Assembly (NCBI GenBank): GCA_031401615.1
Contig: JANNRS010000011.1
Coordinates: forward strand, 1 to 40,548
Direction of reading: 5' to 3'
DNA: 40,548 bases
From: Minisyncoccota bacterium
GTDB lineage: Bacteria; Patescibacteriota; Minisyncoccia; Phycocordibacterales; UBA9973
Shown: one piece after another, positions 4,189 through 30,084 of the stretch
Numbering within the stretch: the first letter of the stretch is position 1
Layout of the letters: the number at the start of each line of letters is the position of its first letter
Notes under the pieces: model-generated
Told to the model about the DNA's origin: nothing
The model's database searches: none
What the model saw: the letters and a program-made list of their open reading frames with translations, nothing else
Position numbers and translations under genes: made by a program

Positions 4189-5640
4189 ATGGATGAAAGA
4201 ACAAAAAAACTAATTAATACCTATAAGACTTCCGGGCCTCTTTCGTCTGGGGCAATAAAAGATGTCTTTGACACTACCCCAACTACAATCGCATCCCCTA
4301 CTCCTGCCCCCACACCTCAATCTCCTGTAACTTTGCCACAACCTAAAGCAGACAAAATCCAAGAAGCCTACATCACCTCTCTATCTGAAAACCAAGCTAC
4401 AACTAGAAAGACTTTAGAAGATACTTATAAGTCTCAAAAAGATGCAATAGATAAGGAAAAAGAAACTCTTGAAATAAAACAACAAGGCTACCTTTCAAAT
4501 ATAGACCCTACTACTAGACCAACCTACGACCAAGAAACTCGCATAATGCAAAACCAACTGGATGCTTCCGAAAGTGCATCTAAGACTTTGCAGACTAATT
4601 TTGAAGAAAATCAAAAACTAGTAGGTGAATTGGAGAAACTGCTAACCGAAGGAAATACTTTGATTGAACAACAAAGGAGAACCCCCGGAGCCTTATTATC
4701 AGGAGCTACTATCGCAACTAATAAAACTATCCAAGATGTGTCTGCAAGGACTGGTGTAATTAATGCTGTATTAAGTGCAAGAGACGGCCAGATTGCTCAA
4801 GCCCACAATATAATTAATCAGGGACGTGATGCGGTAAAAGCCCAATGGGATGATCAGAAAGCATATTATAATACCCTTCTTGATTATAACGATAAAAAAA
4901 TAATCTCTCTTGATGAAGACTCAAAAGCTATAGCCGAGAAACAAGTGGGATTGATTGAGAATGATTTGAAACAAGTTGATGAGACGGTTAACTACTTAAA
5001 AGAACAAATGGTAGACCCTAAGACTGCTCAATTTATGGCTGAAGCTGGGGTAACTTTGACAGATAGCATTAAGACAATAAATACTAAAATGGCTAAACAA
5101 GCTAAGGTAGTAGAAATACGAGAAAAGTCTAACGAACTCTCAGAAAAAGGCTATACCCAAGTCCCTATGGGAACAGTTGGGGCTGTGCCTTTGAATGTAG
5201 GAGGAACTACCCTATATTTTAAAAAAACAGGGAAAGGTATTGACGATAAAGATACAAACGATACTAGAGACGAATACGTGTTAGCGGAAGAATTTGTAAA
5301 TGCTAACCCCGAAGCTACTGATGAAGAAATCAAATCTTCTCTTTTAAGGGATTCTAACCTCTCTGTAACAGATATAAACGCTATACTAGCGAATAGACCT
5401 AACAAAGTAACTGTAAGCGAAGAAGATGCTACCGACATTGCTATCCAAGCGATAGAAAATTCATTTGAAAAGAAGTTTTTCTCATCTAGAACAGGTGAAC
5501 TAAAATCTACTAAAGACTTTGTAAAGAAAAATCTTGAGGCTGTACTTGATGCTCTAGGACACAAAGATATGAACGAGAACGATAAGGAAAGGATATTGCA
5601 AGCCATTGAAGGTATAACTGTAGATGATATAGAAGTATGA
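4189..5640 (+). CDS. Putative internal virion/ejection protein
   Basis: 483 aa; Pro/Thr-rich N-terminus followed by long helical coiled coil. Confidence 0.5.
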   Translation: MDERTKKLINTYKTSGPLSSGAIKDVFDTTPTTIASPTPAPTPQSPVTLPQPKADKIQEAYITSLSENQATTRKTLEDTYKSQKDAIDKEKETLEIKQQGYLSNIDPTTRPTYDQETRIMQNQLDASESASKTLQTNFEENQKLVGELEKLLTEGNTLIEQQRRTPGALLSGATIATNKTIQDVSARTGVINAVLSARDGQIAQAHNIINQGRDAVKAQWDDQKAYYNTLLDYNDKKIISLDEDSKAIAEKQVGLIENDLKQVDETVNYLKEQMVDPKTAQFMAEAGVTLTDSIKTINTKMAKQAKVVEIREKSNELSEKGYTQVPMGTVGAVPLNVGGTTLYFKKTGKGIDDKDTNDTRDEYVLAEEFVNANPEATDEEIKSSLLRDSNLSVTDINAILANRPNKVTVSEEDATDIAIQAIENSFEKKFFSSRTGELKSTKDFVKKNLEAVLDALGHKDMNENDKERILQAIEGITVDDIEV

Positions 5641-8600
5641 TAAATTTTGCAGAATTTAAAACAAAAGTAAAGACTGGTATATCCAGTGACTCGGCTAGTG
5701 CTTTGAGTTTTGCTAACTTTAAAACAAAACCAAAAGTAGAGACACCTAAAATAACTCAACCAATAGATATAAGGAAAGAACCAAACTTTTCTGATTTTAA
5801 ATTTCAAACAAGTACTTCACCTTTCCTTTCTCCTAATACGCCAACCATACAAGGTGTTGTCGGAACTTTTGCTAAAGAAGCTGGACAATCAACTATGCGT
5901 AATATAGCTTCGTTTATAGGATCAGAAGCACTTGAATCTGTCGTAAAGCCTGTAACTAAAAAAGTATCAGAACTAGAGAAGGGTAGTCTAAATTTTCAAT
6001 TTTTCACCGAAGACCTTGCTAAAAGACTTTATGGGGATGTAGAAGATTTGACCTCTGTAGAAATTACAGGGGAAAGTAGAGCAGAGCAACTAGCCCCTAT
6101 CGGAGACAGAATTGTAGGGCTTGAAAAACGCCTAGATGAGAAGAAAAAAGAATATGATGAAATCCTAAAGACCCCGGGATTACTTCCTAATGAGAAGTTA
6201 GTTTTAGAGGGGCTTTCTAATTTAATAGGCAAACAAAAAGGAGGATTGTCAACAATCTTAATCGGCGGAATGGTAGGACTTGATGTAGTCCCCGGTTTTG
6301 GTAGTGCTGATAACTTCCTAAAAACTTTAGTCAAGGAAGGAACCGAACTTGGGGCTGAAAGGACTCTACTAAAACTTGGAGTATCCGAAGACCTTGCTAA
6401 ATTCTATGCTCCTGATGTAGTCAAAGTAAAGAACACAAAAGAAGCTCAAACTTTGTATGAGGCAATAGTAAAAGCTCAAACATCAACCAAACCAACATTA
6501 GGGATTAAACCATTTACAACAAAAGCGACAGTGGACAACTCCCTCCTCTCCGAAGCTCGTAAGTATAAGAGTGCGGAGGAGTTTGTGAATACACAGGGGA
6601 AACCCATTTACCACGGTTCATCAGAAGTAATAAGTGGCGATTTTAGAACCCCATTATATTTAAGTGAAAATAAAGCATACGCAGATACCTACCAGCATAC
6701 AGGGGCTTCTTCAATGGGGCGTGTTAAAAAAGGTGGTGGAGAAAAAACATATGAGTTTTATAAAGCACCAAAAGAAAGAATACTTGATGTTCGCAATCCA
6801 GAGCATATGGCTTTAATGGAAGATTATTTTGCGAATGAAAGTGTTAGCGGAGCATTTTATCCTTCAAAAAGAGGGCTTGTGGATTGGACTGATGCGGAGG
6901 GTATTTCTCAATATGTTGAAGATAAAAAACTACCATTTGATGCACTCTTAATTGACGAGGGCGGAATACCAGACCCATTTTCAAACAAAACGATTGATAG
7001 AGGAATTGGATATGTCGCATTAAATAAAAATGGTATCAAAACCAAATCCCAACTCACCGATATATGGAATAAGACACAAGTGGAGATACCAAAAGAAACA
7101 CCTAAAATCCCTAAACCAACCACAGAAGCTAATCCTCCAACTATCGCCTCCATAAAAGAACTTGGTAAAAGAGTAGACAGTTTAGCTGGAAAATCTAAAG
7201 AAGTTATAAAACAAGAAATAAGTGAGCTGGAAGAGAGACTGTCTTTTTTTAAAGAAGGACTGGACGAGATGCCCGGCAAAAAACTTGAGAAGTTTATTGA
7301 TAAAAAAGAAGGATCGTTCTTAGATTTCAAAAATCCTGACTTAGTGAAGACAGCCAAAGAACGACAACTGATAATTGAGCAAAATAAGAAAATAATGCGA
7401 GCTTCTGAAAGTGCCTTTGAAGGAACTCAATACACGGACATGTTTGATGACCCAGACACTATACGAGAAGCAATAGACAAGTACCAAGAAACAAGAAATA
7501 AAGCAGAAACCATACAACAAAATATAACAAATCTACGCAAAGAAGGAGCCTTGATCACTAAAGCCAAAGTAGCTTCGGGGATAGGTATGCGACAAAGACG
7601 CACGCAGTATAGAGCGGTGCAAGCACGGTACGATCTAACTGATAGTGAACTTAAGAAATTCCTACATGGTAGAAATATCTCATCTATGGAAAATGACGAG
7701 TGGTCTTCATTTTTAAAAGAAGCTGAAATATATGGTGAAAAAACTGAATTACACAGGGATGCCATGATCCAGCTTAAAGGTACTATTGAACACAAAGAAC
7801 TGAAGAATTGGGATAATTTAAGGCAAGCTCTAAATCTCCCCCCCATTCACCAAATGGATACTGAACAGATAAAAAACTTAGAGAATATACTAGATCAATA
7901 TAAATCTGGTGATGACTTCCTACCTGTCCGAATGATTGAGACTCTACCTAACACCGAACTTGCTGGAATAAAAACAACAAGGGAAGTGTTGGAAGTCTTG
8001 TCTAAAAAGTCAGGTAAAGCAGTGGAGAATATGCCTATCCAACCTAGTGAATGGCATAGAATGTTGGGGGATAGAAGACTAGCTCAACAACATCCTTTCT
8101 TAGAAGTCTTAGTGGAAAGAAAAAATAGAGGACTAATGCAAGCGGAAGCTAGAACTATAGAACTCTCTGATGAGATAGATGGACTAGTTAAAAACGCTAG
8201 AACCTCAAGAGAAAAAGGTGTATTAGACAAAGCGATACCTAGTGATGACAACATAATCAGATGGCTTGAAGCGGACGAGGCTGGTAAGACTGCTTTGGCT
8301 AAAGAAATGACTACCGAAGAATTAAAAGCTTCCAAAAGAATGGATGAAGTATTTAAAAGCTACTATGAATATCTAATCAAAAGACACGCTGATAAAAAGT
8401 TTTCACGATTTGAAGGACAGTATTTCCCTCACGTTAGAAGAGGATTTTTAGAAGCTTGGAAAGATGATGGTGTCTTATCTGCATTTAAAGAAATGAAAGC
8501 TAAATACGAGCAAGACGCTTTCACAATGAACATCCTCAATGAGCAGACTCAAGAAATATTACCTTATGAAAAATGGATAGGGTTTTCACAATTTCGTTCT

Positions 8601-9896
8601 GGGGGACTTGTTCCTACTAAAAATGCTGCTAAAGCTTTTGATGCTTATGTGACGGCTTTGGAAAAAGCTAAACATCTTGACGAAATGATACCCGAAATGA
8701 TGGCTTATGTGCATACACTATCTCCTCGTAATTTATCGGAGGGTGGGATTGAATTGGACACTTCACTAAAGAAATTTGTAAAAGAATATATTAATGCAAA
8801 TAAGGGTAGAGTGCCTAAAGGTTTTTTTAACCCGGGGGGGAGTTTTGATGCAATGAATAGAGGTTTAATATCTCTCACTAGAATGCTTGATTTAGGTTTT
8901 AACTTTACTACTCAAATTGCTGCACCAATAGGTGAAAATCTGATGACTCTTACAATGCTAAAACCAAAGGCTTATGCTCAAGCTCTAGTTAGATCACAAT
9001 CTCAACAGGGTAAAGCCATATTAAATAAATACAAAGAATTTGTAGGTAGAACTCCTTGGGATTCTGCAACAAGAGCTTCATCAGATATAGGAGATAAATT
9101 AATGTCAGGAGCGTTTGCTATCTATGGGCAAGCTACAAAACAAGCTAATGGGATGTTTTTACTTGGTAAACTCACTGATGAAGAGTTAAAAACAGGGGTG
9201 GTATCTGCTCAAAGGTTAGCTCAACTCAAAGTAGAAATGAGTAAATATCGTTCTGTGAGAGGCTTGGAGTCTATCTTGGGTAGGACAACGGAAGCCGAAA
9301 CTCTAAAGCAATATAAATCTTGGGCTATTCCTCCCTTAACTGCTACAGTAGAAAATGCTCGTGAGTTAGCTTCTATTGTAAGAAGGGATGGAGTAGTCAA
9401 AGCCCTTTCATCTGAAGCAGGTAAAGAATTGTTTTACTCTGTAGGTATCGGATCGGCCATCGGGTTGATGACTTATACAAAGTATAGAGAATTAAAAGAC
9501 AAGGGAGGTGACAGGTCGTTTATGGAAGATGTGGCTTTCAAAGCTATGCGAGACTCCGTGTCTATTTATGGAGCATTTGACCCCACCCTTTGGTCTAAAG
9601 TCAGAGTGGCGGATTTCTTAGATGATATGGCTACTGCATCTTTAGATTTAATCAAAATGGAAGAATACAAAACTACTGGAAAGTTGAAAGGAGTACAGGA
9701 GTTTAAAGAGACCCTAACACCATCAATAGTAAAAAGAGTAATTCCAGATGAGGAAGATGCAACTGGGATAAAAGGTAAATTACAAAAATTGAGAGACAAA
9801 GATAAAACAAATGTCCGATCTAAACTTCAAGACCTAAGAAAGAGTAGTGGAAGTGTCAGAGATAAATTACAAGAACTACGCAAACAAGGCTCTTAA
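5637..9896 (+). CDS. Large putative ejection/polyvalent protein with internal ART-like domain
   Basis: 1419 aa, helical; YHGS..LYLS..ADTY..FDAL..YVAL..IK segment at ~6534-7073; YFPH motif in the C-terminal half. Confidence 0.65.
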   Translation: MINFAEFKTKVKTGISSDSASALSFANFKTKPKVETPKITQPIDIRKEPNFSDFKFQTSTSPFLSPNTPTIQGVVGTFAKEAGQSTMRNIASFIGSEALESVVKPVTKKVSELEKGSLNFQFFTEDLAKRLYGDVEDLTSVEITGESRAEQLAPIGDRIVGLEKRLDEKKKEYDEILKTPGLLPNEKLVLEGLSNLIGKQKGGLSTILIGGMVGLDVVPGFGSADNFLKTLVKEGTELGAERTLLKLGVSEDLAKFYAPDVVKVKNTKEAQTLYEAIVKAQTSTKPTLGIKPFTTKATVDNSLLSEARKYKSAEEFVNTQGKPIYHGSSEVISGDFRTPLYLSENKAYADTYQHTGASSMGRVKKGGGEKTYEFYKAPKERILDVRNPEHMALMEDYFANESVSGAFYPSKRGLVDWTDAEGISQYVEDKKLPFDALLIDEGGIPDPFSNKTIDRGIGYVALNKNGIKTKSQLTDIWNKTQVEIPKETPKIPKPTTEANPPTIASIKELGKRVDSLAGKSKEVIKQEISELEERLSFFKEGLDEMPGKKLEKFIDKKEGSFLDFKNPDLVKTAKERQLIIEQNKKIMRASESAFEGTQYTDMFDDPDTIREAIDKYQETRNKAETIQQNITNLRKEGALITKAKVASGIGMRQRRTQYRAVQARYDLTDSELKKFLHGRNISSMENDEWSSFLKEAEIYGEKTELHRDAMIQLKGTIEHKELKNWDNLRQALNLPPIHQMDTEQIKNLENILDQYKSGDDFLPVRMIETLPNTELAGIKTTREVLEVLSKKSGKAVENMPIQPSEWHRMLGDRRLAQQHPFLEVLVERKNRGLMQAEARTIELSDEIDGLVKNARTSREKGVLDKAIPSDDNIIRWLEADEAGKTALAKEMTTEELKASKRMDEVFKSYYEYLIKRHADKKFSRFEGQYFPHVRRGFLEAWKDDGVLSAFKEMKAKYEQDAFTMNILNEQTQEILPYEKWIGFSQFRSGGLVPTKNAAKAFDAYVTALEKAKHLDEMIPEMMAYVHTLSPRNLSEGGIELDTSLKKFVKEYINANKGRVPKGFFNPGGSFDAMNRGLISLTRMLDLGFNFTTQIAAPIGENLMTLTMLKPKAYAQALVRSQSQQGKAILNKYKEFVGRTPWDSATRASSDIGDKLMSGAFAIYGQATKQANGMFLLGKLTDEELKTGVVSAQRLAQLKVEMSKYRSVRGLESILGRTTEAETLKQYKSWAIPPLTATVENARELASIVRRDGVVKALSSEAGKELFYSVGIGSAIGLMTYTKYRELKDKGGDRSFMEDVAFKAMRDSVSIYGAFDPTLWSKVRVADFLDDMATASLDLIKMEEYKTTGKLKGVQEFKETLTPSIVKRVIPDEEDATGIKGKLQKLRDKDKTNVRSKLQDLRKSSGSVRDKLQELRKQGS

Positions 9897-14890: not shown

Positions 14891-15436
14891 ATGCCATCAG
14901 GAAATCCAGGACAAAAAAGAAAACCTCATTCAGAAGAAACTAGAAGAAAAATGAGTGCATCTAAAAAGGGGAAAACTTTGTCTTACGAACATCGTAGGAG
15001 ATTAAGTGAATCTCACAAAGGACAGATTTCTTATATGTTGGGCAAAAAACACACCAAAGAAGCCAGAAATAAAATCAGTAAAATGCAAACAGGAAAACCA
15101 CGTTTAAAACAGAGAGGGGAATTGAGTAATCTATGGAAAGGTGGTATTACCACAATAAACGCAAAAATAAGAACTTCTTTGGAGTATAAAATTTGGCGAA
15201 GATCTGTTTTTGAAAGGGATGGATATACTTGCGTTTGGTGCGAATTGAAAAGTGGAAATGGAAAAGCGGTTTATTTATGTGCTGATCATATTAAACCATT
15301 CTCTTTGTTTCCAGAGCTTCGTTTCGCGATAGATAATGGAAGAACATTATGTCTAGAATGTCACAAGAAAACTGATACATTTGGCAATAAAATTAGAAAT
15401 GCTAGACTTGATAAATTAGAAGAAAAATCAAGATGA
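14891..15436 (+). CDS. HNH homing endonuclease with NUMOD3 repeats
   Basis: HSEETRRKMS, HTKEARNKIS; RDGYTCVWC..ADHIKPF..NGRTLCLECH. Confidence 0.9.
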   Translation: MPSGNPGQKRKPHSEETRRKMSASKKGKTLSYEHRRRLSESHKGQISYMLGKKHTKEARNKISKMQTGKPRLKQRGELSNLWKGGITTINAKIRTSLEYKIWRRSVFERDGYTCVWCELKSGNGKAVYLCADHIKPFSLFPELRFAIDNGRTLCLECHKKTDTFGNKIRNARLDKLEEKSR

Positions 15437-17385
15437 CTAAAAAACTCCTTACAATCCTACTCATCATCACAACGATTATCCTAACTGCTCCTTTTGCCTC
15501 ACCAAAAAGTGTCGAAGCTGCTTCTTTTGGATTCGTACAGAGTACAGTGACTGCAGATGCTTCTGATTTAATAATGAATATGACAGTGACTGCAGGGAAC
15601 CTCTTAGTGGTGTCGTGTAAATGGGAAGGGTCATCAGGTGGTACGGGTATGACTGTAACTGATGGTATAAGTTCTTTTGCCTTAGGGACATTAAGAAATG
15701 CTAGTAACGATATGCACGCCCAGATGGGGTATATGCTGTCCGCTAATGGTGGAGATAGAACCTATACAGTGGCAATAAATGGCACAGAAACTTTTGTAGC
15801 CTGTGCACTCGCAGAATTTACTGTTTCAGGCATAGTGGCTTTTGATACCCAAGCAACAAATAGTGCTTTATCAGGTACTGCTTTATCGTCATCAGATATA
15901 ACCCTTGCCGGAACACAAGCTGGATTAGTGGTGGGTTGGTCAGGGATATATGCCACAGGGTCATTCTCTAGTGTGAATATTAACGGTACAGCTGCTGATG
16001 GTGTGATTACCCCACACAATTATACTTCTATGTCCTATTCACTGATTAATTCAGGTACGATGGATGCTGATTTTACATCAAGTATAGATACCACTTGGAC
16101 TGCTAATATTATTGCGTTTAAATCTACCGATATAAGCCAATCTCATTTTAGGTTTCGCAATGACGATGGTTCGGAAAGCACGGCTACTTGGCTTGCAGGA
16201 GAGGACACAAACATCATCCATCCATCCTTAACTGCTGCTCGTTTAAGACTTCAAGCTTCTACTACTCTTGATATGTCACCAGTTAACTATCAATTAGAGT
16301 ACAAACTCTCTACCGATAATTGGTGGACTGTTGCCACTACTTCAGCTAAACAATACGCTACTACTTCGTATATAGGCAAAGGGACTTTTACATCAGGAGC
16401 GGCCTCACTTTCAATCCCTTTTTATACCAATTATGCACCAGGTGATGTTGCCATCCTTTGTGCTACCACCGACCAGCAAAATATGACTACCCCAACTGGT
16501 TGGACAGAAATATCGGGTTCACCACAAGGGGTTGGAACAGCAAACATACCCACTTCAGTTAGACTAGAAGCATATTATAAAGTGGTGCAAGCGGTAGAAG
16601 CTAACGTTACTTTTGCTGATGTAGGAGCATTTCACGCAGCTCAAATTTATGGTTTTAGAGGGGTATCTACCACTACTCCAATACAGACATCGGCTGGTTC
16701 AGTGGAGTCAGCTTCAACTACCGCAATGTCGTGGCCGTCTGTCACCACTACCACCACAGGAACCTCAATTTTAATGTGTGCGGCTATGAATGATGACGAA
16801 ACTGATACTACCAACTCATCAAGTCAGGCAAACACAAATCTTACTGGACTATGGGAGGCTCACGATCAAGTAGTGACCACAGGGACTGGAGGAGGTTTGG
16901 TCACGTTAGTCGCATCATCTTCAGTTGCAAGGGCAATCGGTAATACTACCTCTACTGGAGACTTATCAGGTCGCCACGGCTACATCACGGTGGCTCTTAA
17001 CCCTATTATTAGAAAATTCTCGTTAAACGCATCCGCTAATATAACTGATGCAGGAGAAAACACTACTGCTCAATTGTCAGTACCGGGAGGTAAATCCTTC
17101 ACTGCTGGACGTATACACGATAGCAAAAACCCCTCTGATGGAGTGGATATAGCATCGGATAGGTATTCGGAGTTTGAATGGAGTTTGATCTCAACTGCCG
17201 CTGTTTCTGATGGTGAAATATACAACTGGAGAATGACTGCGTCTGGTACACCTTTCACTACTTATACTGTCAATCCAACTTGGACGATAGGAACTCCGGC
17301 CGCTGGTGCCCAACCAAACAATCCTGCCATAATGAATGTCCGAAGTCAGATTAATGTACAAGGTGGGGTGAGGGTAGGAAATTAA
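15433..17385 (+). CDS. Signal-peptide-bearing multi-beta-sandwich protein (tail/adhesin-like)
   Basis: MTKKLLTILLIITTIILTAPFA..VEA/A; Ser/Thr-rich; FRFRNDDGSE domain. Confidence 0.65.
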   Translation: MTKKLLTILLIITTIILTAPFASPKSVEAASFGFVQSTVTADASDLIMNMTVTAGNLLVVSCKWEGSSGGTGMTVTDGISSFALGTLRNASNDMHAQMGYMLSANGGDRTYTVAINGTETFVACALAEFTVSGIVAFDTQATNSALSGTALSSSDITLAGTQAGLVVGWSGIYATGSFSSVNINGTAADGVITPHNYTSMSYSLINSGTMDADFTSSIDTTWTANIIAFKSTDISQSHFRFRNDDGSESTATWLAGEDTNIIHPSLTAARLRLQASTTLDMSPVNYQLEYKLSTDNWWTVATTSAKQYATTSYIGKGTFTSGAASLSIPFYTNYAPGDVAILCATTDQQNMTTPTGWTEISGSPQGVGTANIPTSVRLEAYYKVVQAVEANVTFADVGAFHAAQIYGFRGVSTTTPIQTSAGSVESASTTAMSWPSVTTTTTGTSILMCAAMNDDETDTTNSSSQANTNLTGLWEAHDQVVTTGTGGGLVTLVASSSVARAIGNTTSTGDLSGRHGYITVALNPIIRKFSLNASANITDAGENTTAQLSVPGGKSFTAGRIHDSKNPSDGVDIASDRYSEFEWSLISTAAVSDGEIYNWRMTASGTPFTTYTVNPTWTIGTPAAGAQPNNPAIMNVRSQINVQGGVRVGN

Positions 17386-17820: not shown

Positions 17821-18681
17821 ATGAAAAACAAAAATCAAATAGAAAATTATGGGTTTGTGAAGCCTGAGCATGATAATAGGGATTTCATTTTCGGCAGTGC
17901 TTTCAACTCACTACCTAAAACAATACTACAAGCTAATGGGGATTGGTCTCCATATCTCCCCCTTTATGAGAGACAATTTGGTGCTGGATGGGACTCATAC
18001 GGTTGCACTTGTTTTGGAACTCTCAACTGCTTAGAGGTCATAATGAAAAAAGTATATGGTACTGATTTTGACTTCTCTGAACGCTATCAATATAACTTAA
18101 TCGGTATAGAACCGCCCGGCTCTGACCCAAAGAAAGTCGCACAATCTATCCACTCTGATGGTGTCCTAGAGCAAAAAGACTTACCATATGAAGACAATCT
18201 AAATGTCTTTAAGAGTCCCCGACCAATGACAAAAAGTCTCATAGATAAAGGACATCTCTGGCTTCAAAGGTATGGATTTGGTTATGAATGGATTGACGCT
18301 AATGTTAAAAACCTGCGAGAATGTTTGCAATATTCTCCTATAGGGGTATCTGTCTGTGCTTGGTATAAGAACGATAAAGGACAGTATTATTCCCCTAAAG
18401 GAATGGACAATAACCACTGGACTCTATTGTACAAAATAGGAGACAATGGCGAATTTTATGTCTTTGATAGCTACGACCAAGAGATGAAGGTATTAACACC
18501 AGAACATAACATTGAGTACGCAATGCGATATAATGTAGAGGTCAAAAGTCCTCAACAAATATTCAACAATATTCAATTAAATTTTATTAGTATTTTACTA
18601 CAATATGTTGCTAACCTATTTAAAAAGACTGCTAGAATTGGTGCAGAAGTTATTACAGAATACTTCCGTCCCAGATATTAA
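17821..18681 (+). CDS. Papain-family (C1-like) cysteine peptidase, possible lysin
   Basis: DW..Q..GCTCF, FSERY, NHW, FDSY motifs in C1 order; hydrophobic C-terminal helix. Confidence 0.75.
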   Translation: MKNKNQIENYGFVKPEHDNRDFIFGSAFNSLPKTILQANGDWSPYLPLYERQFGAGWDSYGCTCFGTLNCLEVIMKKVYGTDFDFSERYQYNLIGIEPPGSDPKKVAQSIHSDGVLEQKDLPYEDNLNVFKSPRPMTKSLIDKGHLWLQRYGFGYEWIDANVKNLRECLQYSPIGVSVCAWYKNDKGQYYSPKGMDNNHWTLLYKIGDNGEFYVFDSYDQEMKVLTPEHNIEYAMRYNVEVKSPQQIFNNIQLNFISILLQYVANLFKKTARIGAEVITEYFRPRY

Positions 18682-18685
18682 AAGT

Positions 18686-19159
18686 ATGGATTACTTACCT
18701 CTTACTAAAGATTCAATAGAGATATTAAAAGAACAATTAGAACCATCTATGAAAGATAAATTTTTAAAAGTTTGTTTGGATGCTCTTGATACTGATCCTT
18801 CTACACTGGACTCTGTGAAGGATGAGTTAGGTTGTGCGGATACTGTATCTCATTTAATTAAAAAATTACTCCCCGACTTTCCTATCATAGTTTCTACTAA
18901 AGATTTGGATATGAAGTTATTTATGGACAAGAGGTTTCGGAGAGAGACCGAACCTGCTAAGGGTAGAATTATAATTAGTCCGAGAAACAATACACAATAC
19001 GGCCATACTGGCGTATGGATAACAGAAGAAAGAATTGCGAGCAATAATTCTTTTGGGATAAATAAAGGTAAATTTAATGGTAATTATACTTACGCTGAAT
19101 GGATAAAAGAGTTTAAAGAGAAAAGAGGCCTTAGAATTTATATCTATAGTTTAGTTTAA
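18686..19159 (+). CDS. NlpC/P60-CHAP-like amidase/peptidase
   Basis: GCADTVS..GHTGV..ASNNS; ATG 18686 avoids a long overlap with the upstream gene. Confidence 0.7.
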   Translation: MDYLPLTKDSIEILKEQLEPSMKDKFLKVCLDALDTDPSTLDSVKDELGCADTVSHLIKKLLPDFPIIVSTKDLDMKLFMDKRFRRETEPAKGRIIISPRNNTQYGHTGVWITEERIASNNSFGINKGKFNGNYTYAEWIKEFKEKRGLRIYIYSLV

Positions 19160-19666
19160 CCAAGCCCAAGTTTTTCCCGCAAGAATACTCTTAATTGTTC
19201 CTCTTGGAGCGTTATAAAATTTAGCAATTTTACTTACCTTTCTATAACCACCACAATAAAGAGCTCGCATTTCTTTGACTTGTGCTTGTGTTAAATATGA
19301 TTTGTGATGTTTTTCCCCAACAGGAAGGAGTCCATTTTTATCTCTATGTTTTAAATTTTCTTGAATAGAACACCACTCTAAATTCTCTACTCGGTTGTCT
19401 GTTTTTATACAGTTTTTATGGTTGACTGTTTTGTATTTTTTATAATTTGAGATATAAGTTTGAGCTACTAATCTATGAGCGGTTCTATAGAAATGTTTAC
19501 CCCCAATTCTTAGGTGATAAACTAAATAACCATTTTTTAAAATACTTCCATTTAACCACCTGCCCGTCCTTAATTGAGCAAATGGACAATTCATCCTTGG
19601 ATAACTCCACACTCTCCCATCTCTTGTAATTGCATACAAACCCTCAAACCCTTTTATATCTTTCAT
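19151..19666 (-). CDS. NUMOD4-HNH homing endonuclease
   Basis: KDIKGFEGLYAITRDGRVWS; HRLVAQTYI..VNHKNCIKTDNRVENLEW. Confidence 0.92.
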   Translation of the reverse strand: MKDIKGFEGLYAITRDGRVWSYPRMNCPFAQLRTGRWLNGSILKNGYLVYHLRIGGKHFYRTAHRLVAQTYISNYKKYKTVNHKNCIKTDNRVENLEWCSIQENLKHRDKNGLLPVGEKHHKSYLTQAQVKEMRALYCGGYRKVSKIAKFYNAPRGTIKSILAGKTWAWLN

Positions 19667-27282: not shown

Positions 27283-27954
27283 ATGACAAACATTATCGAA
27301 ATCCAGACTGAAATAAAAAAGGAACTTGGAAACAAAAGTGTGATGGACGCTTTGGTCGCTACTACTTTTAAAGGATTAGCAGTGCCACAAATTTATCTAG
27401 CGGTGCAGGAAGGTATCTTGAGGGGGTTTGAATTTAAAGACTTCCTAGAAAAAAATGTCTACGCTATCCCCTACGGATCGGGATATAGCTTGGTAACTTC
27501 CATAGACTACGCTCGTAAAATGGGAATGAAAAGCGGGATTGTTGGAGTATCAGCTCCCACTTACGAAGAAAAAGACGGCAAAATAATCTCTTGCTCAATC
27601 ACAGTCAAAAGAAAAGTAAGTGATTATATCGGCGAGTATTCCGCCACAGTATATTTTGACGAATACAACACTAAAAGAAACCAGTGGACTACAAAGCCTC
27701 GTACTATGATTGCAAAAGTAGCCGAAATGCACGCTCTCCGTAAGGCTTGTCCCGAAGAACTATCACAGGCATACTCTGAAGAAGAAAAGCAAAAAGAAAT
27801 TGAAGTACCAGAATTTGATGTCGCACCTTTCAAAGCAAAGTTAGAAGCTACTAAAACAATGGCGGAAATAAAAACAGTTTGGAATGCTTTACCGGCAGAG
27901 GCTAAAAAGGAGCTAGAAACATTAAAAGACGAATTAAAGTTGAAGTATGCATAA
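27283..27954 (+). CDS. RecT/Bet-family single-strand annealing protein
   Basis: [42 protein letters not shown]. Confidence 0.88.
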
Positions 27955-28315
27955 TAAACCTCATTCCAAAGAAGCCAGAGAGAAAATTAGGATTGGGCAT
28001 ACTGGCAAAAAACATTCAGAAGATCATAGACAGAAAATGCGAGATGGAATGATTAAAAGGTATGATAAAATAGGTAGAAAAGAAAGACCTAGACATTACC
28101 ATACGACAGATAGCGTATATAAACAGTGGCGTTCCAATATTTTTACGAGAGATAATTGGACTTGCCAAACTTGCAGAATTAGAGGCGTGTATCTAGAAGC
28201 TCATCATATAAAATCTTGGTCAAGATTTCCTGAACTAAGGTACGAGTTAAGTAATGGGGTTACTTTGTGTAAAGAATGTCACAAATTAACAGATAATTAT
28301 AAAAACAAGAAATGA
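27947..28315 (+). CDS. HNH homing endonuclease with NUMOD3
   Basis: [18 protein letters not shown]; [26 protein letters not shown]. Confidence 0.9.
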
Positions 28316-28911
28316 AAACTTTTAAATTTGAAACAAGGGAAGAATGGCTAATGGCTAGGCGAGGTAAGATCACTGGCTCTCGTTTAAAAGATATTGTGGT
28401 CAAAAGAGGGACTGGCTACAAAATAGGGTTTTATGAATTGATAGCCGAAAAACTTGGTATTCCTGCTGATGATGAAAGTGCTATGGATCGGGGGACTAGA
28501 CTTGAAAGCGAAGCGGTTGAGCAATTTACAAAAGAAACAGGTAAAAAAGTAGATACAAGTTTGGTGATGTGGACACGAGAGGAAAATGAGAATATCGCGA
28601 TCTCTCCCGATGGCTTCGGTAAGGACTTTGCAGTAGAAGCTAAATGCTTATCCTCTGCCCGCCACATTGAAGCTTGGCTCACTAAGAAAATCCCTGATGA
28701 ATACGAATACCAGAAACTTCAATACTTCATAGTAAACGACAAGCTCAAAAAACTTTACTTTCTCTTTTATGACCCTAGACTGCTTTATAAACCTTTTTTC
28801 ACCATTGAAGTAAAAAGAGAGGATGTAGAAGAAGAAGTCCAAGAATACTTGGAGTATCAAAAAAACATACTAGAAAGAGTAGACGAAATTGTAAACGATT
28901 TAACCTTTTAA
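28312..28911 (+). CDS. YqaJ/lambda-exonuclease-family nuclease
   Basis: [35 protein letters not shown]. Confidence 0.9.
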
Positions 28912-29236: not shown

Positions 29237-29674
29237 ATGGCAAAGATACCATTCTACGCAAAATCAGAGCAAGGCAAGCTAGTATTCTCTAATCACAGAG
29301 AAATAAACGATTATTTATTATCTGTAAACGGCAAGCAACTCAAAGTAACGATAGAGAGAGCTACTGGTAGGAGAAGCGATGACCAAAACTCTGCCCTCCA
29401 TCTCTGGTTTGAAATGTTAGCTCAAACACTTAACGAAGCAGGCTTTTCGGTTCAACAGATATTAGCAAAGAAAATGGATATGGATTGGTCGGCTGTATCA
29501 GTAAAAGAGTTCCTATGGAGGCCAGCTCAAAAGAAACTTATTCAAAAAGAGAGTACAACAGAATTGGCTAAGATTGAAGAGATAGACTTGATTTTTGACC
29601 ATCTCAATCGGCATTTGTCCGAAAAATTCTTTATTGAGGTTCCTATGTTTCCATTTGACCCTAATAAAAGATGA
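29237..29674 (+). CDS. NinB-like recombination protein
   Basis: RRSDDQNSALHLW..STTEL; adjacent to the NinG-like gene. Confidence 0.55.
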   Translation: MAKIPFYAKSEQGKLVFSNHREINDYLLSVNGKQLKVTIERATGRRSDDQNSALHLWFEMLAQTLNEAGFSVQQILAKKMDMDWSAVSVKEFLWRPAQKKLIQKESTTELAKIEEIDLIFDHLNRHLSEKFFIEVPMFPFDPNKR

Positions 29675-30084
29675 TGAAGAGATCAGGATTTAAAAAACGA
29701 ATAACCAAGCCAATGAAAGCCAAACAAACTGGCTCGGTAAGAATAAACCTTAAAAGGAAGGCTTGGGACTTATTTTCAAAGTGGATTCGTCAAAGAGATA
29801 AACGATGTGTAACTTGTGGCTCTACTAACGATCTTCAGGCAGGACACTTTTGGCACGGAGTCCTTGACCTAGACGAAATGAACATTAACGCACAATGTAA
29901 AAAATGTAATACCCATCTTAGCGGTAATTTAGGTCATTACTCAATGTATTTAATCAACAAATATGGATTAGATAAATTCAAAGACCTAGAACAACGCCAT
30001 TGGCTAGCCAAAAGAGGCGAATTTAGGTCAGATAGTCAGTTGATTGAAATTATTGAACATTATCAAAATCTAATTAAACAGTAA
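29671..30084 (+). CDS. ninG: NinG/Rap-family HNH nuclease
   Basis: FSKWIRQRD..CVTCG..AGHF..NINAQCKKCN..SGN. Confidence 0.85.
   Translation: MMKRSGFKKRITKPMKAKQTGSVRINLKRKAWDLFSKWIRQRDKRCVTCGSTNDLQAGHFWHGVLDLDEMNINAQCKKCNTHLSGNLGHYSMYLINKYGLDKFKDLEQRHWLAKRGEFRSDSQLIEIIEHYQNLIKQ

Follow-up and report, generated by a model that had tools for sequence, protein, structure and literature searches.

The window, that is the whole 40,548-nt stretch of DNA analysed here, is a complete circular phage genome with a 141-bp terminal repeat, present as contig C11 in a bin of 55 contigs and 769 kb. A Pfam/PHROG scan of the window proteins recognised terminase, major capsid and tail-fibre genes together with a Red-like recombination set. 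The giant protein P0002 is encoded in the late block, with the major capsid gene on one side and the tail-fibre gene on the other, the late-gene context of a tailed phage that is one mark of polyvalent proteins. Between Pro/Thr/Lys-rich linkers of P0002 lies a globular segment (window 6534-7073, aa 300-479), as the first-pass annotation had described it, and the motifs follow the order given there: LLSEARKYKSAEEFV, YHGS, LYLS, A..Y, FDAL, YVAL and IKTKSQLTDIWNK. We refer to the enclosed domain as the cargo and to the two boundary motifs as handles (Table 1).

Table 1. Features of the slot, its host gene and the candidate exchange enzymes (positions in the window)
Feature	Position	Strand	Evidence
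Giant protein P0002, 1419 aa, host gene of the slot	5637..9896	+	ORF
Upstream Pro/Thr/Lys-rich linker, aa 281-300	6477..6536	+	sequence
Left handle, class I, aa 301-319, two predicted helices	6537..6593	+	PSSM 53 bits; model helices 2-8, 14-19
Left-handle DNA core, silent sites conserved	6561-6587	+	codon test
Cargo, ART-fold domain, aa 320-464	6594..7028	+	AF2, fold searches, subfamily alignment, dN/dS
Right handle, class I, aa 465-481, last strand and predicted helix	7029..7079	+	PSSM 52 bits; model helix 171-183
Right-handle DNA core, silent sites conserved	7041-7064	+	codon test
Downstream Pro/Thr/Lys-rich linker, aa 482-501	7080..7139	+	sequence
RecT/Bet-like single-strand annealing protein, candidate exchange enzyme	27283..27954	+	PF03837 E 4e-16; phrog_252
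YqaJ-like exonuclease, candidate resection enzyme	28312..28911	+	PF09588 E 2e-15
NinB/Orf-like recombination mediator	29237..29674	+	phrog_72 E 2e-6
NinG/Rap-like junction endonuclease	29671..30084	+	PF05766 E 2e-18

Neither P0002 nor the handles have a match in Pfam, PHROG or NCBIfam; one effector domain is recognised in the chain, the remainder being unannotated in these collections. A further mark of polyvalent proteins is the combination of at least two effector domains, along with an MPTase hub, in a single chain. The Pfam labels of the Atlas clusters nearest to aa 640-1400, the part that we call the scaffold, are LPD39 (in 28% of members) and LPD38 (in 63%), which is no more than a lead. 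P0002, the scaffold profile and a 591-aa neighbour recovered no relatives when searched against PDB sequences, the scaffold profile matched none of the solved ejection proteins, a scan of viral contigs with the scaffold found no relatives, and a cultured-phage collection gave weak partial matches only (best E 0.2). None of the 42 proteins scanned matches a tape-measure or sheath protein, and a podovirus-like ejection protein is therefore suggested. On gene position and family context, P0002 is a putative virion or ejection protein that would be injected with the DNA. Its C-terminal end (window 9758-9896) carries three short basic repeats of the form KLQxLR, possibly a DNA-binding or packaging tail.

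The segment folds as one confident domain in an AF2 model built on a 62-sequence alignment (pLDDT 90.6, pTM 0.84), and the ADP-ribosyltransferase (ART) type of fold proposed in the first-pass annotation is supported by this model and by three fold searches. A search of 48,161 solved chains gives its highest scores to AcrIF11 (Z 7.7), to a cyanophage A4 pre-ejectosome chain (6.8) and to the diphtheria toxin catalytic fold (6.2). Such Z values are moderate, yet almost all of the first 40 VIA rows are, judged by their titles, ART folds. Foldseek found a best BFVD match at E 1.6e-12 and TM 0.68, with ART-PolyVal-named entries among the matches; 37 viral models of that name match at E 0.001 or better, and PARP/tankyrase domains match weakly (E 0.016). 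The cassette profile searched against the PDB yielded only a weak match to the diphtheria toxin catalytic domain (E 0.18). The Pfam ART-PolyVal model, PF18760, does not match the domain at E 0.05, nor is its gathering cut-off reached; a link to it is provided only by a local HMM whose seed was the set of PF18760-positive inserts (E 3e-5 at first, 4e-17 afterwards) and by Atlas clusters at 0.94. The AcrIF11 family model NF052490 matched neither P0001 nor any of the 62 aligned sequences at E 0.01, and one cassette of the second handle class described below scored 22.7 bits with it, below the cut-off of 50.

The H-Y residues of the cargo are H326 in strand 1, invariant in 7/7 subfamily members, and Y341 in model strand 41-44, with Y352 marked in addition. 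The usual strand-5 Glu position, which holds Glu in many sister cassettes, is Gly458 here; E441, invariant in the same seven members, sits after the strand preceding strand 5. The modelled fold and the His/aromatic pair would place the domain in the H-Y (diphtheria toxin/PARP-like) branch of the ART superfamily, and our guess is that E441 is the probable catalytic acid of the predicted ADP-ribosyltransferase. A dN/dS of 0.10 against the cargo copy in locus L203 indicates purifying selection. A domain of the same ART subfamily at L204:3934-4374 lacks both handle classes and sits between two near-exact copies of a ~26-residue peptide repeat; it may represent a separate route to the gain of an in-frame cassette.

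The first-pass annotation had proposed the boundary motifs as possible limits of a swappable slot for diverse anti-host domains. PSSMs for the two motifs, applied with a cut-off of 16 bits, delimit 227 closed cassettes, spread over 178 proteins that were assembled in a way that favours ART; most scores lie at 30-65 bits, whereas 178 shuffled proteins reach 3.1 at most. A profile restricted to the motif junctions retrieves, at E 0.001 or better, 2,027 clusters defined at 50% identity, a few of which look like repeat artefacts. A closed cassette is present in 143 of the best 150 of these matches, one in 58 proteins, two in 76 and three in 9, that is, tandem arrays occur in 85 of the best 150 motif-selected proteins. 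The local ART model matches 140 of the 237 inserts in these 150 proteins; 97 fall outside it, many of them unannotated, with 17 in a ParB-like cluster and others that look like divergent ART, GNAT, NTase or PRTase domains, where labels beyond Pfam matches are our reading of motifs. Pfam applied to 127 locus inserts recognises ART-PolyVal in 48, GNAT in 3 and ParB in 1. The motifs thus delimit a slot in which an ART-like majority is accompanied by ParB-, GNAT-, NTase- and PRTase-like as well as unassigned cargo, and 'diverse' proves apt: the inserts vary among homologues rather than being one invariant domain. Conservation of the motifs at the DNA level, a second handle class and the tandem arrays go beyond that first reading.

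The slot is not tied to one protein family. Among 218 proteins the upstream flanks sort into 81 groups with no connection between them. The full left motif is present in 18 of 80 named-genome rows matching an 8-residue pattern, most of the named matches being chance, and these 18 rows have mixed labels (6 CPR, 4 archaeal), bin labels that are not evidence of host. There is no second handle copy in the 769-kb bin. In the literature outside subscription journals we found neither the motif strings nor the handle concept, and the strings are absent from the supplement of PMC9503650. Two stand-alone genes, at L216:4956-5480 and L015:5992-6585 (174 and 197 aa), consist almost entirely of handle-ART-handle and are possible donor reservoirs. 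L200, whose start is shared with L015, differs from L042 by a stop codon upstream.

Reciprocal comparisons support the idea that the slot is swappable, as orthologues of the scaffold carry other cargo and the cargo has a copy elsewhere. Fifty scaffold orthologues were found with P0002 aa 640-1400 alone: 19 have the class I left motif, 3 have both class II motifs, 1 has a partial class II left motif and 27, including 2 truncated fragments, have neither left motif. The ART domain of the window is absent from all 50 (best identity 27%). The slot instead contains a ParB-like domain in P0108, a RelA/SpoT-like domain by motif reading in P0129 and a 20-aa stub in P0110, and P0117 has no cassette. P0106, 94% identical just upstream of the slot, carries at aa 284-725 a 442-aa unannotated domain devoid of handles, and the slot region must therefore change by other routes too. 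The closest copy of the cargo, in L203, shares 440/525 nt (84%) from window 6552 to 7076 and nothing beyond. Two foreign contigs, from runs of one sediment study, match a 3.6-kb stretch at the left handle only (6558-6589 and 6552-6591, with 2 differences over 32 nt and 3 over 40 nt); contigs of four low-depth runs of one study contain no alternative cargo or exchange joint. Elsewhere, L189/L205 and L205/L206 have near-identical cargo starts behind unrelated upstream flanks, L200/L042 have a common upstream flank and unrelated cargo, and the tandem units of L117 and L133 have junction DNA in common. The positions at which right handles switch vary: at or before 14 in L003/L205, from 21 to 32 in L133 and to the right of 32 in L117; the left-handle switch can extend into shared ART codons. 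As crossover points differ within the handles, one fixed site does not fit and short-homology recombination does. Read from these alignments, cargo has been exchanged between unrelated genes.

The handles are conserved at silent sites. The codon test used 97 cassettes with cargo identity below 50% (119 minus 16 redundant and 6 short of flanking ORF), the expectation being each gene's own codon usage. In the handles GAG was found in 92/95 cases against 31.8 expected, AGT in 82/87 against 19.1, TCC in 72/78 against 6.1 and ACC in 58/78 against 11.9, and this fixation also holds in the 26 non-ART cassettes. Silent-site z reaches 28 in the handles and 3.5 at most in conserved ART codons, taken as control; the z-values rest on the assumption that cassettes are independent and do not prove selection, so that recent spread of handle DNA could account for part of the signal without any selection on recombination. 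The fixed DNA cores adjoin the cargo and measure 24-27 nt (~25), the size needed by Red-beta, which requires 23-27 bp (PMC3945230). Among 4,656 pairs, 17% share a perfect run of at least 23 nt in the left handle and 5% in the right, falling to 0.5% and 0.1% after synonymous recoding; the handles of the window have such runs with 31/96 other cassettes on the left and 15/96 on the right. The right DNA core has 118 distinct matches, 78 of which are handle-like and all in coding frame; the other 40 looked like chance, and no out-of-frame or non-coding use was seen among these matches.

A second class of handles, with the pair AKASGQSFDEW ... KTRSQLKAEW, is closed in 14 of 19 loci around ART-, ParB- and GNAT-like cargo, and cargo is common to both classes, with 3 class II inserts at 70-82% identity to class I inserts. 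The two classes display the same strand polarity. In the left-core codons next to the cargo, G or T occupies the third position in 73-96% (class I) and 67-100% (class II), and in the right core, whose codons end in C or A, in 2-24% and 0-17%, against a background of 49%. The G/T-rich strand therefore runs 5'-to-3' into the cargo from both sides in both classes. Pairing tests do not support left-right base-pairing as the source of this polarity. RecA filaments favour TG-rich DNA, a biochemical bias (PMC3763553), and our literature search found no strand-composition preference data for RecT/Bet. The G/T-rich strands correspond to the 3' tails that would be left by a resected break inside the cargo, which makes gap repair a probable route; this reading of the polarity is the least secure step of our explanation. 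At L454:1501 a class II left motif occurs shortly after a class I right core on the same contig and no enzyme-like insert follows; it is possibly a degenerate second unit.

How might such a slot operate? We consider it probable that the ART-fold domain is an exchangeable cargo and injected effector, that the silent-site-conserved ~25-nt handles provide homology for recombination, and that the handle peptides cap the enclosed domain. The starting point would be two handle-bearing phages in one cell. Pairing of the handles would fall to a phage exonuclease and a RecT/Bet annealase, or to host RecA, and would lead to in-frame replacement of the cargo; the RecT, YqaJ, NinB and NinG proteins encoded by this phage count in favour of Red/RecET-type exchange. 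Cutting of the variable cargo followed by gap repair from the 3' tails of the handles would be the probable route. The giant protein would then be packaged and ejected into the host, where the cargo may use NAD+ to modify a protein of host defence or gene expression by ADP-ribosylation, E441 being the acid, and the handle peptides would form a small helical cap around the enclosed domain. A broader version, possible though we lean against it, is that the handles are a standard in-frame plug format used by thousands of uncultured lineages, in which host attack on the cargo drives replacement of the weapon and the cap docks any fold.

Could the motifs instead matter as protein only, whether they form a helical cap, tag the protein for packaging or signal its processing, with the DNA likeness reflecting recent spread and the exchange being incidental? 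The distal residues (Leu and Glu-Ala; Trp-Asn-x-Ala) are indeed kept as amino acids with freer wobble positions, the handles are predicted helices in both models (pLDDT 83-97), and left and right ends of the two classes rarely mix, a class II-type right end occurring in 1/119 class I cassettes. Near-empty and stand-alone cassettes also exist in nature (L310, P0110, L216, L015). One natural cassette, whose insert is 25 aa long, is predicted to form three helices, with pLDDT 83-92 at the ends and pTM 0.56, and a fold search with the near-empty model returned generic helical matches only (Z 4.5 or less); from these models it is plausible that the handle peptides form a helical cap closing round any fold. 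A role confined to protein, however, does not explain why rare codons are fixed in at least 90% of cassettes around unrelated cargo and in AT-rich genes, or why the polarity recurs in a second class of different sequence, and we regard it as unlikely.

The two remaining explanations are more improbable again. The left handle might act in mRNA, as a Shine-Dalgarno-like run with an in-frame GTG serving as internal start or pause, and the C/A-rich right handle as an unstructured spacer. The left core does read GGAGGAG with GTG five bases past GGAGG, and the consistent coding frame of the handle-like right-core matches would suit this function; yet the third base of the GTG codon is G in 57% of class I handles only, class II retains the polarity without a GGAGG run, and both the concentration of crossovers in the handles and the specific codons of the right handle are left unexplained, which makes an mRNA signal very unlikely. 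Least probable of all in our estimation is that the handles are recombinase or transposase sites, such as an integron attC-like hairpin or inverted ends. The two cores have complementary compositions and some short words in common, in inverted orientation, and an 8-bp stem that includes one G-T pair is possible in class II; class II right handles fold somewhat better than their shuffles (RNA, -9.4 against -4.2 kcal/mol in 13 sequences), whereas class I handles fold no better than shuffles. Against such sites, there is no convincing left-right covariation within cassettes and no preferred pairing register, duplex energy is -11.4 kcal/mol vs -11.3 for permuted pairs, and in 2 of 4 registers picked by hand p was 0.008 and 0.001, the effects being very small. 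Right-handle crossovers fall at mutually exclusive positions, and no integrase match is present among the 42 window proteins scanned. A hairpin or attC-like structure and left-right pairing were thus tested by covariation, duplex energy, shuffles and crossovers and are not supported. Integron attC cassettes combine a covarying single-strand hairpin with one fixed crossover point, and the handles have neither.

Handles that would serve as recombination homology invite comparison with several known systems. ART domains in polyvalent phage proteins are already known (PMC5512222, PMC9503650). The polyvalent proteins of Iyer et al. 2017 share with P0002 the large late-gene protein and an H-Y-type ART (ART-PolyVal, Tox-ART-HYD2-like), and their domains overlap with the cargo found here: ART, ParB-like, GNAT, pol-beta NTase, PRTase, zincin and RelA/SpoT-like (PMC5512222). 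LPD38 or transglycosylase domains also occur in some of our handle-bearing proteins; the ART domain of the window differs in having no PF18760 match. In the main text of that paper a word search found no 'linker', 'shuffling' or bounding motif, and as far as that text goes recombination is raised as a possibility for one locus only. T4 Alt, invoked in the first-pass annotation as an injected ART, belongs to a different ART clade, R-S-E (PMC5512222); the comparison therefore holds as an analogy only, and not at the level of clade. AcrIF11 (PDB 6KYF, 8DWQ), the best structural match (rmsd 3.8 A, 116 aligned), requires a non-canonical acidic DE pair for activity (bioRxiv 10.1101/2024.08.26.609590), and a DE pair with an invariant Glu, which may be its counterpart, is also present here. 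AcrIF11 differs in being a stand-alone early protein with a known target, at 16% identity and with its family model not matched. The pre-ejectosome chain 9K3A_B of cyanophage A4 (rmsd 4.1 A over 129 aligned residues; PMC12002296) has a similar fold and sets a precedent for ejection proteins that contain an ART-like fold, although no sequence homology to the P0002 scaffold was found. That fold lies in residues 946-1600 of PDB 9K3A chain B, which residue numbering suggests is gp27, and the term 'ADP-ribosyl' does not appear in the main text of PMC12002296.

A close parallel in logic is domain movement (DoMo), described for type I S subunits and the type III mod target recognition domain (TRD) (Furuta et al., PMC3077401, PMC3467074), where movement between non-orthologous genes uses 8-117 bp of flanking similarity. 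In both systems a domain sits in an x-domain-y arrangement with in-frame flanking repeats, copy number changes with expansion to two or three units, and domains move between non-orthologous genes with crossovers in the flanks. In those accounts a single fold, the TRD, is moved inside one bacterial species; the present system involves unrelated enzyme folds that pass between non-orthologous phage proteins, and it shows fixation at silent sites, polarity and two classes of handle. The handle cargo is ART-like, ParB-like, GNAT or other and not a restriction-modification target recognition domain, and the system therefore works like DoMo while standing outside it. It likewise works like the shuffling of PeSL cassettes of T4-type phages without being a member: short conserved sequences flank exchangeable DNA in both, but PeSLs are intergenic promoter/terminator elements moving whole genes (PMC2839356), whereas the handles are coding, in-frame and move domains. 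Mosaicism through Rad52-like recombinases, in which Red-type annealases with Orf and Rap promote short-homology exchange, is shared as well (PMC3945230). With ART domains in polyvalent proteins and DoMo-type movement already known, what is likely new here is the presence of probable DNA-level handles for trading unrelated domains among phage genes.

How polyvalent phage proteins acquire and exchange their domains has been a question since their description, and a defined, silent-site-conserved pair of handles makes domain exchange testable. The handles also provide a sequence hook for effectors, any insert between them being a candidate for an anti-host domain delivered by injection, and the strand polarity predicts a particular repair route. 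If the plug-format reading is true, CRISPR or restriction cuts in the cargo would be repaired from a co-infecting phage, replacing the weapon across unrelated virion proteins. The window also encodes three HNH/NUMOD homing endonucleases by Pfam (14891-15436, 19151-19666 and 27947-28315), one directly after the tail-fibre gene, which are possible sources of breaks in co-infecting genomes. Downstream of the tail fibre lie two unannotated ORFs of 650 aa (window 15433-17385) and 286 aa (window 17821-18681), and homologues of the latter are found close to handle-bearing genes in four loci.
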